From: Candidatus Woesebacteria bacterium
GTDB lineage: Bacteria > Patescibacteriota > Microgenomatia > UBA8517
Assembly (NCBI GenBank): GCA_016432525.1
Contig: CP066693.1
Span: 482,732 to 546,731 of the forward strand
Length of the DNA stretch: 64,000 nt
Reading direction: 5' to 3'
The position numbers and the translations under genes are program-made. Positions 46,427-53,523 of the stretch are shown here, one piece after another. Position 1 is the stretch's first letter. Each line of letters begins with the position of its first letter. The notes below the pieces were generated by a model. That model saw nothing but the letters and a program-made list of their open reading frames with translations, made no database searches and had not been told where the DNA came from.

Positions 46427-47380
46427 ATGCCAAGAGAAATTCTCACTGAAAGAAATATTTTGGTAACAGGAGGAGCTGGTTTTTTAGGATCAAGAGTAGT
46501 TGCAGAATTAAAATCTGAAGGCTGCTCACCCGATAAAATTTCTGTACCCAGATCCGCAACTTGTGATTTAAGAGTTGATAAGAATTGTATTGAAGCATTG
46601 GCAGATATAGATATTGTTATTCACCTCGCAGCTCGCGTTGGGGGAATTGGCTATAATCAAACTCATTCAGCAGAACTTTTTTATGACAACTTAACAATGG
46701 GTACACGAATACTTCACGAAAGCTGGCGCGCAGATGTTAAAAAGTTTGTAGGAATAGGAACAGTTTGTGCATACCCAAAAAACACGCCAATTCCTTTCAA
46801 AGAAGAAGATTTATGGAACGGCTACCCTGAAGAAACAAATGCACCATATGGTTTAGCAAAAAAAATGCTTCTGGTTCAAGGTCAGGCGTATCGTCAACAA
46901 TATGGCTTCAATGCAATATATCTCTTGCCTGTTAATTTATACGGTCCAGGCGATAATTTTGATCCTGACAGCTCTCATGTAGTACCAGCTCTTATCAAAA
47001 AATTTTATGAGGCAAAAGTAAGCAACCAAAATGAAGTTGTAGTTTGGGGAACAGGAAAAGCAACTCGTGAATTTTTATATGTTGATGATGCTGCCGAAGG
47101 AATTGTAAAAGCTACCCAAAAATATAATAAAGCTGACCCAGTAAATATTGGCTCATCTTTCGAAATTTCCATACGAGAGTTAGCAGAACTAATTGCCAAA
47201 TTAACAAAATACGAAGGTAAAATCACTTTTGATTCAAGTAAGCCAGATGGACAGCCTAGACGCAAACTCGATACTTCTAAAGCAGAGCAGGAATTTGATT
47301 TTAAATCAACTACAACTTTTGAGGAAGGATTAGGACGTACAATAGATTGGTATGGGGAAAAAATCTCTTCAAAATCTTAA
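46427..47380 (+). CDS. fcl: GDP-L-fucose synthase (GDP-4-keto-6-deoxy-D-mannose 3,5-epimerase/4-reductase).
   Basis: It is collinear with E. coli Fcl signature blocks: [12 protein letters not shown] (Rossmann), [22 protein letters not shown] (catalytic Y-x3-K), [40 protein letters not shown] and [14 protein letters not shown]. Confidence 0.85.
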
Positions 47381-48512
47381 CATTGCAATCGCAACGCATA
47401 TTTTTGCTACAGGCCCTGCACTTGAACTGGAAGAATATCTTAAAAACAAAGTTAACTCCCTTCTTTTTATCGGAAATCCATTTCCTTACAGTAAAGAAAA
47501 AAGATCTTTTTATCGATTCTACTTAAGAGGGAAGCTTAAAAAAGAGCACAAATTTTTAAACGTCTCCTTCTTGGACACATTATCTTATTTTAAAGATGCA
47601 ATAATCACTTTTTTTTGGACAATTAGATCTCCAAGGAAAATTAATCTATTCATTGCCTCAGATAATTTTTTAGGATTTGTAGGGATAGTTCTCAAAGAAA
47701 TTGGAAAAGTCGACGAGATCATACTTTATACAATTGACTATATGCCTAAAAGATTCACAAATTCTTTTCTCAATTACCTTTATCATTATTTTGATAAAAT
47801 ATGCATGAAAAAATCCAAAATTATATGGAATGTCAGTTCAAAAATCTCAGAAGCTCGGGAAGAATATTCAGGAATTAGAATTAAAGATAGTTGCAAGCAA
47901 ATTGTCGTACCATTAGGAGTTTGGTACAAAAGAATTCCTAAAACTCCTTTTAATAAAAGACAAAAAAATTCAATTATATTCATGGGACATTTATTAGAAA
48001 AACAAGGGTTAAATATAGTGATTGAATCACTTCCTGAAATTATTAAAAAAATACCAGATGTTAGCTTAACAATTATCGGCACAGGTCCTTATGAGAGAGA
48101 ACTTGTTTCTCTTGTCAAAAAACTCAAATTATCAAAATGGGTTAAATTCATGGGGTATATAGAAAGTCACCAAGAAATAGAGAGAATACTTTCCCAAAAA
48201 TCTATGGCAGTGGCCACTTATAAACCAGATCCTGAAAGTTTCACTTATTTTGCAGATCCAGGAAAAATTAAAAACTACTTGGCAGCAGGTTTACCAGTTA
48301 TACTAACCAATGTGCCACCAATTGCAACCGATCTAGAAGACAAAAAATGCGCACTAATTTGTAGATACGACAAAAAAGATTTTTGCGCTAAAATAATAAG
48401 TTTAATTAATAATAAAATTAAATTAAGAACATACTCTAATAATGCATCAAGTTACGCAAAACAATTTGATTGGAATAAAATATTTGCTAAAGCTCTAAAA
48501 TCTTCGTTATGA
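47352..48512 (+). CDS. GT4 family glycosyltransferase (GT-B).
   Basis: [23 protein letters not shown]...[26 protein letters not shown]. It overlaps the fcl 3' end by 29 nt. Confidence 0.55.
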
Positions 48513-49264
48513 GCAAAAAAACTCATTTTAAAAAACAAAAAGAATATTTCGAAAAAGATTTATCTTTTTATGAAAACTATGACAAAAGTTTAAATGCTTG
48601 GCGCCTTTCTTATATCAAAAGAATAAAAAAGGCATTACATTATAAATATAAGAAAAAAACAATTGTAGATGTTGGAACTGGTAGCGGCTATGTCGCCATA
48701 GAAATGGCAAAGTTAGACTCGAGTGTTTTAGCAACAGACATCGTTGAATCAACTCTTAAAAATATAATTTTTTACGCTAAAAAGAAAAAGTTAAAAGTTA
48801 AAACTCTTATTTGTCCCGCTGAAAAGATTCCAATTAAAGCAAAAACAGCAGATTTAGTTGTTGCAAATAGTGTCTTAGAACATATTCCAAATGAGTCTGC
48901 TGCAATAATTGAATGGAAAAGAATTACTAAAAATAACGGAAAGATTTTTGTTACGATTCCTTTAAGTTTTAAATATATTTGGCCATTTTTTTGGCTAGTC
49001 AACTATTTATATGATCGTATGCTTGGGCATCTACGACGTTATGATCTAAATTCTCTCCAAAAAAAATTCGGCTTAGAAATCGAACAAGTATACTACACAG
49101 GTCATTTAATTAAATTTTTATGGTTTTTGATATCCAGACCTTTTTTGGGAGGGATTCGTAGTTCTAGTAAAATAGATTATTTTTTCGAAGATCTTGATCA
49201 GAAATTTGAAAATATTCCTTTCGGAGCAAGCAATTTAGTTGTAATATTCAAAAAAGAAAAATAA
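48509..49264 (+). CDS. Class I SAM-dependent methyltransferase.
   Basis: Motif I VDVGTGSGYVAI, then VLATDIV, ADLVVANSVLEHIPNE and NNGKIFVTIP. Confidence 0.7.
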   Translation: MSKKTHFKKQKEYFEKDLSFYENYDKSLNAWRLSYIKRIKKALHYKYKKKTIVDVGTGSGYVAIEMAKLDSSVLATDIVESTLKNIIFYAKKKKLKVKTLICPAEKIPIKAKTADLVVANSVLEHIPNESAAIIEWKRITKNNGKIFVTIPLSFKYIWPFFWLVNYLYDRMLGHLRRYDLNSLQKKFGLEIEQVYYTGHLIKFLWFLISRPFLGGIRSSSKIDYFFEDLDQKFENIPFGASNLVVIFKKEK

Positions 49265-51723: not shown

Positions 51724-51747
51724 TTTTTATGTTATACTTGTGCCGAT

Positions 51748-53523
51748 ATGAACGTATTAGGAATTTATAACGCTCACAATGCAACTGCCGTTTTAGTTAA
51801 AGATGGAGTAATAGTGGCTTGTGTTTCTGAAGAAAGATTCACAGGTAAAAAAAATCAATATGGTTTTCCAAAACACGCCATAGATTATTGTATCTCTCAA
51901 GCAAAAATTAAGTCTTCAGATATAGATTTAGTTGTTATCCCTTTTAAATATGGACCTCCTCAACATTCACTTCGAGAAGAAAATCGCGATCTCAAACTGA
52001 ACTTTTTTTTAAACATTTATAAAATCGTATCAGTTGTAAGAAAAGAATGGGGTGAATTGGCTTACAGATACCCAGACCTAATACCAATAGGCAAATGGTC
52101 GTTTAGGACAGCATCTATTATTTTTGAAAAATTCCACATGGCAAGTGAGAGAAAATACGTTGCTGATTATTTAGGAATTTCTGTTAATAAAGTAATAAGC
52201 GTTGATCATCATTTATCGCATGCAGCATCTGTTTATTTTAGTTCACCTTTTAGTGGAGAAAAAACTTTAGTTCTAACTCTTGACGGAGAAGGTGACTTCA
52301 AATGTGCAACAGTTTCAATTTTTGACCAAAATAAATATAAAATTTTAGCCACTTCTGATCGCGAGCATTCTCTCGGATATGTTTATCAAAGATTAACCGA
52401 AGTTTTGGGAATGAAAGCAAATGAACATGAATATAAAGTAATGGGTTTAGCTCCTTACGCAAAAGGTGATGAAATCAATAAAATTTACGACAAGATAAAA
52501 AATATAGTTTATCTAGATCCCAAAAATCGCCTAATTTTTAAATCAAAATTTAATACAGTTGATACAGATAAATTTTTAGAAAGAGAATTAAAAAGAGTAA
52601 GATTCGATATTTTAGCAGCAGCATTTCAAAAATTTACTGAAGACAAGATAGTTGAATGGGTCGATTACGCGGTCAAAAAAACTAAAGCCAAAAAACTACT
52701 CCTTTCCGGTGGGGTATTTATGAACATCAAGGTTAACCAAAAAATTGCAGAATTACCAAGTGTTAAACAAATGTTTGTAATGCCTTCTTGTGGTGATGAA
52801 TCAACTCCAATTGGAGCCGCTTTTTTGGGATATATGAAATTAGGTAAACAAAGTCAACTTAAAAATTCTATTCTTAAAAATTTATATTTTGGACCAGAAT
52901 TTGGAAATAGTGAAGTCGAAAAAATCATCAAATCTAAAAGACTTACTAGGAAGTATAAGGTAATTCGTTCTCGAAACATTGAAAAGACAATTGCAACTCT
53001 TCTAGCAAAGAAAAAAATTATAGCAAGAGCTTCGGGTAGAATGGAATTTGGAGCACGAGCTCTTGGTAATAGATCGATAATGGGTAACCCAACTGACCCT
53101 TATGTAGTAAGAAAAATAAATGACCAAATCAAAGGCCGTGATTTTTGGATGCCTTTTGCTCCAACAATTCTTTGGGAGAGAATGCAAGATTATATTATAA
53201 ATCCCAAAAAGATAGAGTCTCCGTATATGATGATGGGCTTTGTTACAACAGAGCTAGCCAAAAAAGAACTTACTGCAGCACTTCATCAGTATGACTTTAC
53301 CGCAAGGCCACAACTTTTAAAACAAGAAGCAAATCCTAAATACTACAAAATTATAAAAGAATTTGAAAAAATAACAGGAATTGGAGGAATCTTAAATACC
53401 TCATTCAATTTGCATGGTTTTCCAATTGTTCTAGGTCCAGTTGAAGCTATAAACACATTTGAAAACTCTGGACTCGAGCACTTGGCACTCGAAGACTATT
53501 TAATATCCAAAAAAATTTCATAA
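51748..53523 (+). CDS. Carbamoyltransferase (NodU/CmcH family). It is the second tandem copy.
   Basis: NVLGIYNAHNATAVLVKDGVIVACVSEERFTGKKN...HHLSHAASVY...LTLDGEGD, GGVFMNIKVN, SCGDESTPIGAAFLG, GRMEFGARALGNRS, RDFWMPFAP and ILNTSFNLHG. Confidence 0.8.
   Translation: MNVLGIYNAHNATAVLVKDGVIVACVSEERFTGKKNQYGFPKHAIDYCISQAKIKSSDIDLVVIPFKYGPPQHSLREENRDLKLNFFLNIYKIVSVVRKEWGELAYRYPDLIPIGKWSFRTASIIFEKFHMASERKYVADYLGISVNKVISVDHHLSHAASVYFSSPFSGEKTLVLTLDGEGDFKCATVSIFDQNKYKILATSDREHSLGYVYQRLTEVLGMKANEHEYKVMGLAPYAKGDEINKIYDKIKNIVYLDPKNRLIFKSKFNTVDTDKFLERELKRVRFDILAAAFQKFTEDKIVEWVDYAVKKTKAKKLLLSGGVFMNIKVNQKIAELPSVKQMFVMPSCGDESTPIGAAFLGYMKLGKQSQLKNSILKNLYFGPEFGNSEVEKIIKSKRLTRKYKVIRSRNIEKTIATLLAKKKIIARASGRMEFGARALGNRSIMGNPTDPYVVRKINDQIKGRDFWMPFAPTILWERMQDYIINPKKIESPYMMMGFVTTELAKKELTAALHQYDFTARPQLLKQEANPKYYKIIKEFEKITGIGGILNTSFNLHGFPIVLGPVEAINTFENSGLEHLALEDYLISKKIS

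Follow-up and report, generated by a model that had tools for sequence, protein, structure and literature searches.

The locus comprises a tightly packed, co-directional run of 10 genes on the plus strand (45575-56254) of Candidatus Woesebacteria (Patescibacteria/CPR), a very small uncultured bacterium. The run is located within an island of envelope-glycosylation genes that spans at least 84 kb; the whole window, i.e. the 64,000-nucleotide stretch of DNA analyzed here, consists of glycosylation genes, and no initiating phosphoglycosyltransferase was recognized in it. The named members of the run are a GT2 glycosyltransferase, an Fcl-like enzyme, a GT4 glycosyltransferase, a class I methyltransferase, an FkbM methyltransferase, two carbamoyltransferases (here denoted CT1 and CT2), a GT-C glycosyltransferase (GTCx) and a FAD oxidoreductase (Table 1). 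The gaps between genes range from -29 to +24 bp, and from this spacing alone we infer co-transcription of what is an operon-like unit. A first-pass annotation had described the middle of the run, from the Fcl-like gene to CT2, as a cassette of six consecutive plus-strand genes. The ORF listing places all six exactly as in Table 1, and Pfam and NCBIfam searches, with E-values far beyond chance, upheld the name given to each at family level. The boundary of the cassette, however, is arbitrary, as it cuts through the 10-gene run and omits the GT-C enzyme and the FAD oxidoreductase.

Table 1. Features at the carbamoyltransferase locus, in window coordinates.
Feature	Position	Strand	Basis
ArnC/PgfS/AglJ-like GT2, two C-terminal TM helices	44586..45557	-	Pfam Glycos_transf_2 E 5e-34
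Soluble GT2 glycosyltransferase, first gene of the run	45575..46426	+	Pfam Glycos_transf_2 E 1e-28
Fcl-like GDP-4-keto-6-deoxyhexose 3,5-epimerase/4-reductase	46427..47380	+	Pfam Epimerase E 1e-55
GT4 glycosyltransferase	47352..48512	+	Pfam Glycos_transf_1 E 9e-21
Class I SAM-dependent methyltransferase, variable decoration gene	48509..49264	+	Pfam Methyltransf_11 E 3e-16
FkbM-family methyltransferase, variable decoration gene	49268..49981	+	PF05050 and TIGR01444, both above cut-off
CT1, class III (TobZ-type) O-carbamoyltransferase, 581 aa	49978..51723	+	PF02543 and PF16861
CT2, class III (TobZ-type) O-carbamoyltransferase, 591 aa	51748..53523	+	PF02543 and PF16861
GTCx, unannotated GT-C-fold membrane glycosyltransferase	53527..55188	+	Structure and hhalign; gap of 3 bp after CT2
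DAO-family FAD-dependent oxidoreductase, last gene of the run	55166..56254	+	Pfam DAO E 1.6e-19
Ornithine carbamoyltransferase, convergent with the operon	56232..57149	-	TIGR00658, 395 bits vs cut-off 281
Convergent conserved block	57174..61945	-	Pfam and NCBIfam
GT2 in convergent block	57174-57950	-	Pfam and NCBIfam
472-aa protein without family name	57966-59384	-	Pfam and NCBIfam
Sugar isomerase/epimerase TIM barrel	59359-60174	-	Pfam and NCBIfam
Short SDR	60171-60950	-	Pfam and NCBIfam
ArnC/PgfS-like GT2, two TM helices	60947-61945	-	Pfam and NCBIfam

Related loci (L numbers) share much of this arrangement. The order Fcl-GT4-(MT11 and/or FkbM)-CT1-(acetyltransferase)-CT2-GTCx-DAO is kept in L054 and L055 and partly kept in L006 and L002/L007. 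Upstream of the run, separated by 17 bp and divergent from it, is a GT2 gene found at the same position in L002, L054 and L055. Its product matches the NCBIfam ArnC model over full length (E 3.5e-53, under cut-off), has TM helices near residues 248 and 282, and is a probable polyprenyl-phosphate sugar synthase. The soluble GT2 that opens the run (53-71% identity in L002, L054 and L055) abuts the Fcl-like gene with a gap of 0 bp. The latter overlaps the GT4 gene by 29 bp, a pair kept in L002/L007, L005, L054 and L055. The two methyltransferases, which would O-methylate sugars, vary between loci. The class I enzyme, with weak, under-cut-off NCBIfam matches to UbiG and the mycofactocin oligosaccharide methyltransferase MftM, is present in L002 and L055 and missing from L054; the FkbM ORF is present in L006 and L054 and missing from L055 and L002. 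FkbM membership was confirmed with PF05050 (75.5 bits vs cut-off 22.7) and TIGR01444 (47.6 vs 37.7), and BLAST found no significant similarity of this ORF to NoeI (E 0.19).

The Fcl-like protein matches the GDP-L-fucose synthase model NF047922 over full length (E 9e-87), at 291 bits vs a cut-off of 500. The match is sound at family level, but the word "strong" that had been applied to it is overstated, because the score falls below the NCBI equivalog threshold. The protein has the motifs GGAGFLG, GTVCAYP, YGLAK and SHVVPA, and judged by its sequence is probably a GDP-L-fucose synthase.

GTCx has no Pfam or NCBIfam match, although PF13231 is carried by some of its homologues. The protein spans the membrane with ~10 TM helices, carries a DEW motif in its first external loop and has a soluble domain at the C terminus. 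Alignment with hhalign to the PMT_2 paralogues of the window gave a probability of 91% (E 9.5e-7), the similarity to PMT_2 being under Pfam thresholds. The AF2 model has a pLDDT of 93.6 and a pTM of 0.93, and the top 18 Foldseek matches in the PDB are all GT-C enzymes; by its modelled fold, GTCx is a GT-C enzyme. The gene immediately before GTCx encodes a carbamoyltransferase in the window and in L006, L002/L007, L003/L011, L005, L054 and L055, and a tight junction between the two genes, either a start/stop overlap of 4-8 bp or a gap of 3 bp, is kept in at least 6 rearranged loci. However, among GTCx relatives at 30-41% identity only 9 of 35 loci have a carbamoyltransferase within 10 kb; close relatives may thus have inherited the linkage from a common ancestor, in which case it would not be a sign of a shared substrate.

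The DAO oxidoreductase, whose likeness to solved proteins is confined to the N-terminal Rossmann region, is next after GTCx in L002/L007, L005, L006, L054 and L055. The convergent ornithine carbamoyltransferase is tentatively a possible local source of carbamoyl phosphate; it lies beside the operon only in the window, L006, L055 and L057, and 79 of its 80 metagenomic homologues sit elsewhere. In L005, L007 and L055, too, the conserved block beyond it is convergent with CT-GTCx-DAO.

CT1 and CT2 each contain both carbamoyltransferase domains at full length (Carbam_trans_N E 1e-37 and Carbam_trans_C E 2e-63 in CT1; E 9e-54 and 2e-57 in CT2), and the peptides previously quoted for them (KIIGLTCHY, NVLGIYNAH, GRGEWGPRALGARS and GRMEFGARALGNRS) are all present. 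NCBI names CT1 'hypothetical protein HY044_02940'. Both proteins show full-length similarity to TobZ, NovN and GdmN, with PDB E-values of 1e-61 to 1e-73 for TobZ/NolO/NovN/GdmN-type enzymes; TobZ itself is matched at E 2.5e-73 by CT1 and 1.6e-61 by CT2. TobZ (tobramycin 6''-O-carbamoyltransferase; PDB 3VEN; 570 aa) is built as they are, with PF02543 forming a Kae1-like N domain and PF16861 a YrdC-like C domain, and its C-terminal half is 37.5% identical to that of CT1 and 31.7% to that of CT2. It is encoded in an aminoglycoside cluster, in contrast to the envelope-glycosylation island of CT1 and CT2. With residue roles taken from PMC9633730, the general-base His, the four iron ligands (2His+2Asp) and the K/R/N/S residues of the YrdC domain, all shared by TobZ, are kept in CT1 (H14, H136, H140, D159, D344, K453, R455, N538, S540), in CT2 (H10, H154, H158, D179, D350, K462, R464, N550, S552) and in 115-116 of 116 homologues. 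As every metal-binding and catalytic residue tested is retained, both enzymes look catalytically competent. Neither of the findings that the first-pass annotation had named as fatal to the assignment was obtained: the complete active sites rule out pseudo-enzymes, and TsaD/HypF scores of ~20-40 bits vs cut-offs of ~208-466 rule out HypF/Kae1-like (TsaD) proteins.

The two copies had been called divergent, correctly so because they are only 31.5% identical over about 600 residues. In the phylogeny, bootstrap support is 98% for the CT1 clade and 100% for the CT2 clade, and the two form a group that leaves out TobZ (99%). They are old sister paralogue clades; NodU is farther from them than are TobZ and an enzyme at the NolO position, and none of these three is an orthologue. 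The acceptor-pocket loops differ clade-wide, loop 1 having 10 residues in CT1 vs 6 in CT2 and loop 2 having 14 vs 9. Indels in both loops support a difference in acceptor specificity. The earlier proposal of two carbamoylation positions stands as far as non-redundancy is concerned, but the clades and loops fit two positions and two different sugars or acceptors equally.

Rhizobial Nod-factor decoration (NolO, NodU, NoeI, NolK/NoeL, NodZ) combines the same chemistries as the operon: NodU and NolO carbamoylate at 6-O and 3-O, NolK is an Fcl-type GDP-fucose synthase and NoeI a fucose 2-O-methyltransferase (PMC4881576). Over its full length, CT1 matches (283 bits, 32.6% identity) a carbamoyltransferase that occupies the NolO position in a nod cluster of Bradyrhizobium; at 677 aa, that enzyme is ~90 residues longer than CT1 and CT2. 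NodU is only 24-26% identical to CT1/CT2, which score 147 and 109 bits vs a cut-off of 1000 on the NodU equivalog model. NodZ and the NodA/B/C chitooligosaccharide machinery are not here, and the host is a CPR bacterium. The "Nod-factor-like decoration set" is only an analogy between types of enzyme and does not denote a homologous system.

As a working model we compare the operon with the ArnC/ArnT (Ara4N) and archaeal AglJ...AglP...AglB pathways, in which an ArnC/AglJ-like membrane-anchored GT2, cytoplasmic tailoring enzymes and a GT-C transferase are likewise encoded together. Tailoring in the AglP pathway is by a methyltransferase, to which the operon adds carbamoyltransferases, and the oligosaccharyltransferase WWDxG motif is not present in GTCx. 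We know of no carbamoylated lipid-linked sugar and, to our knowledge, CPR bacteria have no LPS core. By description, the operon resembles that of WapO (PA5005), a putative carbamoyltransferase encoded with glycosyltransferases in a surface-glycan operon, linked together with CarB to carbamoylation of the Pseudomonas aeruginosa LPS core and dependent on a supply of carbamoyl phosphate (PMC13552734). P. aeruginosa draws this from CarAB, whereas the only nearby candidate in the window is the ornithine carbamoyltransferase, whose adjacency is lineage-restricted.

We consider it likely that the 10-gene unit builds, carbamoylates and methylates a lipid-linked glycan that the GT-C enzyme transfers outside. 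The glycan would be assembled on a polyprenyl-phosphate carrier at the cytoplasmic membrane face, with ArnC/AglJ-like GT2 enzymes encoded on the flanks of the unit, and would be extended by the soluble GT2 and by the GT4. One sugar would probably be a 6-deoxyhexose of the L-fucose type, which the Fcl-like enzyme would make and the overlapping GT4 attach, and the two methyltransferases would O-methylate the glycan. CT1 and CT2 would each convert carbamoyl phosphate and ATP to carbamoyl-AMP in the YrdC-like domain; at the iron site, which lies in the Kae1-like domain, the carbamoyl group would then move onto a hydroxyl of a sugar, and the two enzymes would differ in acceptor specificity. After flipping of the decorated lipid-linked sugar or glycan, the GT-C enzyme would attach it to an acceptor outside the cytoplasm. 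Substrates, step order, lipid carrier and final acceptor in this model are those we infer.

Carbamoylation might instead occur on soluble nucleotide sugars (e.g. GDP-fucose or a UDP-sugar) before glycosyl transfer, the GT-C enzyme being a mere island neighbor. CT1 and CT2 are indeed soluble, without TM helices, and of the TobZ type, whose acceptors are small and polar (PMC9633730), and GTCx paralogues mostly lack a carbamoyltransferase. The close CT-GTCx junctions retained through rearrangement nevertheless make this unlikely, and we know of no description of a carbamoylated nucleotide sugar. Very improbable is a non-glycan acceptor (secondary metabolite, lipid or hydroxymethylated nucleic acid) with an incidental place in the island: all neighbors within ~84 kb are glycosylation genes, with none for thymidylate synthase, dCMP deaminase or a PKS/NRPS biosynthetic cluster, and more distant homologues, of 50-60% identity in other CPR classes, are likewise found in glycan islands, among GT2, GT4, GT-C and sugar-nucleotide genes. 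Class III acceptors are very diverse, though, and the family also carbamoylates antibiotic aglycones and, in a phage clade, 5-hydroxymethylcytosine in DNA and RNA (PMC9633730, PMC8670742); glycan precedents are NodU, NolO (PMC4881576) and WapO (PMC13552734).

Were CT1 and CT2 redundant, or one heteromeric enzyme with a single activity, only one carbamoyl group would be added. GdmN-type relatives are dimeric (PMC9633730), and L003/L011 and L005 have one carbamoyltransferase immediately upstream of GTCx. We regard this as quite improbable, given two complete active sites, clade-wide indels in both pocket loops, old clades each conserved at 50-74% identity across many genomes, a tandem pair kept in at least 5 genomes, and a C-terminal dimerisation domain missing from both, as from TobZ and TobZ-type enzymes on polar acceptors (PMC9633730). 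More weight, although still a minority share, goes to the possibility that the Fcl-like enzyme makes another GDP-6-deoxyhexose, or is idle without a 4,6-dehydratase, leaving the glycan without fucose. Beyond the sub-threshold NF047922 score, Gmd was not found in the window, in the 10 kb on either side of it or in 4 of 5 related loci (the named loci without it being L045, L048, L055, L006, L007 and L005), and the dehydratases encoded nearby in L002 and L003 belong to the dTDP-glucose/PseB/FnlA type and are not Gmd. Against this, the best solved relatives of the protein are all GDP-L-fucose synthases (7ll6, E 3e-67; 1bsv, E 5e-60), it has the motifs for NADPH binding, for Ser/Thr-Tyr-Lys and for the Cys/His of the epimerase, and Gmd could sit elsewhere on the 916-kb contig. 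Comparative support for fucose comes from L054 only, where a bona fide Gmd (530 bits vs cut-off 415) overlaps the start of the Fcl-like orthologue. The fucosylated glycan first proposed thus keeps its Fcl-like gene with the right motifs, but not an equivalog-level score or a local Gmd.

Taken as a whole, the 10-gene run most likely serves to decorate a cell-surface glycan of this bacterium with carbamoyl groups, methyl groups and a sugar of the fucose type, a sensible but fairly ordinary prediction.

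The first-pass annotation had described a six-gene cassette running from a GDP-L-fucose synthase gene to two tandem carbamoyltransferase genes (here denoted CT1 and CT2). The ORF listing recovered all six plus-strand genes in place, Pfam and NCBIfam profiles confirmed the family of each, and the peptide motifs quoted for the carbamoyltransferases were found in the CT1 and CT2 sequences. The genes thus stand, while the boundary drawn around them does not. Spacing between neighbouring genes is -29 to +24 bp from a leading GT2 gene to the second gene past CT2, and they therefore form one co-directional run of 10 genes, which also takes in the GT2, a GT-C membrane glycosyltransferase (GTCx) and an FAD oxidoreductase (DAO). 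Promoter and terminator scans gave counts at or below shuffle expectation, and tRNA and Rfam scans of the window, whose G+C content is ~31%, gave zero matches.

Features of the carbamoyltransferase run, its surroundings and related loci (window positions unless a locus is named)
Feature	Position	Strand	Remark
10-gene run	45575-56254	+	GT2 first, DAO last
Fcl-like extended SDR	46427-47380	+	best NCBIfam model GDP-L-fucose synthase
GT4	47352-48512	+	profile search
Class I methyltransferase (Methyltransf_11)	48509-49264	+	profile search
FkbM-family methyltransferase	49268-49981	+	above both curated cut-offs
CT1	49978-51723	+	581 aa; full-length Carbam_trans_N and Carbam_trans_C
CT2	51748-53523	+	591 aa; full-length Carbam_trans_N and Carbam_trans_C
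GTCx	53527-55188	+	553 aa
DAO	55166-56254	+	FAD oxidoreductase
Ornithine carbamoyltransferase (OTCase)	56232-57149	-	convergent with DAO
Soluble protein	57966-59384	-	472 aa
TIM-barrel isomerase/epimerase and short SDR	59359-60950	-	two ORFs
Fused isomerase-SDR ORF	L005 11747-13297		516 aa
Variable decoration genes	48509-49981; L054 5074-8224; L055 5624-6439; L002 9226-12507
PMT_2/ArnT-like GT-C genes	14381-28818; 38960-44605; 61966-64000; L048 1024-7899
PMT_2 gene followed by DUF5667 gene	38960-41532; L002 1-2194
Second DUF5667 gene	34998-35507
Polytopic membrane proteins	18494-19735; 30561-31838		9-10 TM helices
CT2 homologue and neighbours, Daviesbacteria	L051 618-4477

Both carbamoyltransferases carry a Kae1-like N domain (PF02543) and a YrdC-like C domain (PF16861), which scored 127 and 210 bits in CT1 and 184 and 191 bits in CT2 against gathering cut-offs of 24 and 27 bits, with matches spanning the full profiles. 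A PDB sequence search aligned both end to end with TobZ (E 2.5e-73 for CT1, 1.6e-61 for CT2) and also matched NovN, GdmN and 7xb6; no HypF or Kae1 entry was among the matches. The YrdC-domain motifs GRxExGxRALGxRS, KxR...PFAP and NTSFN are all present in both proteins, and their residues presumably serve carbamoyl phosphate and ATP, as in TobZ. The conserved residues of class III enzymes were defined in GdmN as four iron ligands, two His and two Asp (H133/H137/D156/D333), and a general-base His (H27) (PMC9633730). Alignment to these residues gave H14 as the general base of CT1 and H10 as that of CT2, and H136, H140, D159 and D344 (CT1) and H154, H158, D179 and D350 (CT2) as iron ligands. The active-site residues are kept in 115-116 of 116 homologues. 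Two readings that the first-pass annotation had raised against itself are ruled out: pseudo-enzymes, by the conservation of all catalytic residues, and a grouping with HypF or Kae1-like proteins, by domain and family scores together with the PDB matches. The HypF model TIGR00143 gave 34 and 25 bits (cut-off 466) and the TsaD models gave 39 and 30 bits on CT2 (cut-offs 208 and 296). We assign CT1 and CT2 as predicted O-carbamoyltransferases of the class III TobZ/NodU/CmcH family. The public record identical to CT1 is 'hypothetical protein HY044_02940', from a 916,571-bp contig of a Candidatus Woesebacteria MAG, and CT2 is annotated as 'carbamoyltransferase'. GdmN and NovN have at their C-terminus a dimerisation domain of ~100 residues that both CT1 and CT2 lack, and carbamoyltransferases without this domain typically act on polar acceptors (PMC9633730).

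CT1 and CT2 are 31.5% identical, bearing out the divergence reported at first pass. Our reference set comprised two NodU proteins, a NolO-position carbamoyltransferase and NoeI, all from symbiosis plasmids, the NolO-position enzyme being from a Bradyrhizobium nod cluster with the order nodU-nodI-nodJ-CT-nodZ...gmd. In a BLAST-type comparison this enzyme scored 283 bits with CT1 and 218 bits with CT2, and the two NodU proteins 123-132 and 91-108 bits; identity to the C-terminal half of TobZ is 37.5% and 31.7%, respectively. Orthology to NodU was rejected, as NF041651 gave 147 bits (CT1) and 109 bits (CT2) against an equivalog cut-off of 1000, and identity to the two NodU proteins is 24-26%. A neighbour-joining tree of 296 C-terminal columns, bootstrapped 100 times and rooted arbitrarily on NodU, recovered clades for CT1 (98%) and CT2 (100%) as sisters, excluding TobZ, the NolO-position enzyme and NodU (99%). 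This topology indicates that CT1 and CT2 are old paralogues and that neither has an orthologue among the characterised enzymes. The duplication cannot be put inside Patescibacteria (CPR), because the CT1 clade includes non-CPR members.

Of the two loops that line the acceptor pocket as defined for GdmN, loop 1 lies around the general-base His and loop 2 after the iron-ligand Asp, and both differ by indels between the clades. The first loop has 10 residues in 17 of 18 CT1-clade members and six in all 17 CT2-clade members; the second has 14 residues throughout the CT1 clade (18/18) and nine throughout the CT2 clade (17/17). The tandem pair, in places split by an acetyltransferase gene, is kept in the window and in the related loci L006, L054, L055 and L002/L007. 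Loop indels and retention of the pair jointly support the view that CT1 and CT2 would differ in acceptor specificity and be non-redundant. As to the earlier proposal of two carbamoylation positions, these results fit one sugar modified at two positions as well as two different sugars.

GTCx, encoded directly after CT2, gave zero Pfam or NCBIfam matches. It has ~10 TM helices, the first of them followed by a DEW motif (residues 36-38); profile-profile comparison with the PMT_2 paralogues of the window gave an hhalign probability of 91%, and some GTCx homologues match PF13231. A PDB sequence search with the GTCx profile was empty, and the fold was revealed by structure comparison alone. The AlphaFold (AF2) model reached pLDDT 93.6 and pTM 0.93, and the top 18 Foldseek hits in the PDB were all GT-C enzymes (among them STT3, PglB, AglB, DPY19, ALG12, ArnT and Pmt) with probability ~1.0, at query-normalised TM-scores of only 0.28-0.46. 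On these grounds GTCx is a predicted GT-C glycosyltransferase, whose N-terminal module is polytopic, whose first external loop bears an acidic motif and whose C-terminal domain is soluble. The gene immediately upstream of GTCx encodes a carbamoyltransferase in the window and in L006, L054, L055, L002/L007, L003/L011 and L005, its stop codon usually overlapping the start codon of GTCx, and a DAO gene follows GTCx in most of these loci. Strict co-occurrence was rejected: in species-representative genomes only 9 of 35 GTCx loci have a carbamoyltransferase within 10 kb, and tight coupling is limited to the closest GTCx orthologues. Carbamoyltransferase homologues at 50-58% identity adjoin other glycan genes, e.g. 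GT4, GT2 and YfhO. A Daviesbacteria homologue of CT2 has neighbours that encode SIS, GHMP-kinase, hydrolase and NTP-transferase domains, a set that may resemble the GmhA/HddA/GmhB/HddC heptose-nucleotide pathway; the LPS core of P. aeruginosa bears carbamoylated heptose.

For DAO, profile and structure-relative searches did not narrow the function. Facing the run is a conserved convergent block of a GT2, a sugar-isomerase TIM barrel, a short SDR and an ArnC/PgfS-like GT2. The isomerase/epimerase and SDR genes overlap by 4 bp in the window and are fused into a single ORF in L005, a fusion suggesting that the two enzymes may act together on a sugar, possibly with DAO. The 472-aa soluble protein, without a Pfam or NCBIfam family, is absent from the otherwise syntenic L055 and has weak homologues (31-44% identity) in L005 and L007.

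The strong GDP-L-fucose synthase match claimed at first pass, and with it fucose, fared less evenly. The Fcl-like ORF matched NF047922 over its full length (E 9e-87) with 291 bits, below the equivalog cut-off of 500. Its best solved relatives in the PDB are all GDP-L-fucose synthases (E 3e-67 to 1e-34), and the motifs GGAGFLG, GTVCAYP, YGLAK and SHVVPA are present, which we take from the literature on E. coli GMER to represent the NADPH site, the Ser/Thr-Tyr-Lys residues and the Cys/His pair of epimerisation. Gmd was not found in the window, its +-10 kb flanks, or L055, L006, L007 and L005 (four of five related loci), and the dehydratases near the Fcl orthologues of L002 and L003 are other than Gmd. 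A bona fide Gmd is encoded in L054, a close relative, where it scored 530 bits with TIGR01472 (cut-off 415) and its gene overlaps the Fcl orthologue at the latter's start. The Fcl-GT4 pair, with its 29-bp overlap, is conserved in five loci. Given the motifs, the PDB relatives and a Gmd in L054 only, fucose or a related GDP-6-deoxyhexose is plausible, rather than proven, in this genome.

The FkbM assignment held on both models, PF05050 (75.5 bits against 22.7) and TIGR01444 (47.6 bits against 37.7). BLAST detected no similarity to NoeI (E 0.19). Otherwise syntenic close relatives differ in which of three genes they carry, namely those for the class I methyltransferase, the FkbM methyltransferase and a hexapeptide O-acetyltransferase. 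Variable glycan decorations would be expected to behave in this way, and the variation looks serotype-like. In the set L006-L040, many MAG records whose gene content and synteny are of the Microgenomates type bear the title 'uncultured Gammaproteobacteria bacterium', apparently a placeholder or mislabel.

All annotatable genes of the window are glycosylation genes. They include six tandem PMT_2-type GT-C paralogues, two larger PMT_2 proteins and another GT-C running off the 3' end, as well as YfhO-type proteins, many GT2 and GT4 enzymes, two Wzx-like flippases, several methyltransferases, one polysaccharide deacetylase and two DUF5667 proteins. The island extends at least 10 kb past each window end, with four further PMT_2 genes upstream, so that glycosylation takes at least 84 kb of the ~0.92 Mb contig, and the share given to extracytoplasmic glycosylation is unusually large for so tiny a genome. 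Counting the genes upstream, at least 13 PMT_2/ArnT-like GT-C genes lie in these 84 kb or more; the six tandem paralogues are 27-36% identical and one pair is 38% identical. Immediately after one PMT_2 gene comes the gene of a small DUF5667 protein with a signal anchor, a pair also found in L002, and the DUF5667 proteins could be acceptors for O-glycosylation. Two polytopic membrane proteins without a family match are candidates for a polymerase, a ligase or further GT-C enzymes; the ORF of one (30561-31838) lies ahead of a Wzx-like flippase gene and overlaps a GT4 ORF at the latter's 3' end.

We propose that a glycan would be assembled on a polyprenyl-phosphate carrier at the cytoplasmic membrane face, that a fucose-type sugar would be built in and the glycan O-methylated, that CT1 and CT2 would each O-carbamoylate it via carbamoyl-AMP from carbamoyl phosphate and ATP, and that, once the product had been flipped, the GT-C enzyme would carry out its transfer outside the cell. 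The enzyme families, predicted catalytic competence, paralogue divergence and gene linkage of this scheme are read from the sequences; all substrates and the order of steps we infer. In a rival variant the carbamoyltransferases would act on nucleotide sugars. Another would give CT1 and CT2 a non-glycan acceptor, as for the phage 5hmC carbamoyltransferases, which are marked by thymidylate synthase and dCMP deaminase neighbours (PMC8670742); because both markers are absent near CT1 and CT2, we disfavour it. A more specific form of the lipid-linked scheme would join the carbamoyltransferases, GTCx and DAO with the facing ArnC-like GT2, SDR and isomerase block into a dedicated ArnT-like pathway, in which a polyprenyl-phosphate-linked sugar would be O-carbamoylated at the cytoplasmic membrane face and transferred by the specialised GT-C to an envelope protein or polymer. 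We regard this form as rather unlikely; if true, it would provide the first carbamoylated lipid-linked sugar donor and the first defined envelope glycan modification in CPR.

For the supply of carbamoyl phosphate to the proposed glycan carbamoylation, the neighbouring gene for a genuine OTCase (395 bits with TIGR00658, whose cut-off is 281), which overlaps DAO by 23 bp, is a possible local source, at best a tentative one. The adjacency recurs in L006, L055 and L057. As a conserved carbamoyltransferase partner OTCase is weak, since its context is shared by one of 80 metagenomic homologues (48-74% identity); the other 79 are located elsewhere, and those examined stand alone amid unrelated housekeeping genes. 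As part of the ArnT-like pathway considered above, such an orphan OTCase next to the run might, in a sublineage, make carbamoyl phosphate available from citrulline.

In Nod-factor decoration as known from NGR234, NodU and NolO provide two carbamoyl positions, NolK/NoeL/NodZ fucose and NoeI 2-O-methylfucose (PMC4881576). Our locus has enzyme types in common with this set and is itself not a Nod-factor system: besides the failed NodU equivalog, the NodA/B/C backbone and NodZ were not found among annotated window ORFs (best NodC score 27 bits against a cut-off of 550; NodA and NodZ not detected). The Nod-factor-like label therefore survives for the enzyme types only. The original observation is confirmed and its interpretation partly supported. 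For carbamoylation of a structural surface glycan, WapO with CarB, at the LPS core of P. aeruginosa, is the nearest functional precedent (PMC13552734). In joining a GT2 and a GT-C with tailoring enzymes, the locus also resembles ArnC/ArnT and the archaeal Agl pathways, a likeness that may serve as a working analogy only. Our literature search found no paper joining CPR, carbamoyltransferase and glycosylation.

There is almost no experimental knowledge of the cell envelope of Patescibacteria, whose episymbiotic members rely on contact with the host surface. Both carbamoyltransferase clades are widespread in CPR and uncharacterised, with one member still a 'hypothetical protein', and CT1 and CT2 would provide a TobZ-like scaffold in two versions, with acceptor pockets that have diverged in nature. 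These results extend known enzymology to a poorly studied lineage, where current understanding stands and no new principle is needed, and the run predicts decorations that would be visible by MS, namely carbamoyl (+43 Da), methyl (+14 Da) and one deoxyhexose.
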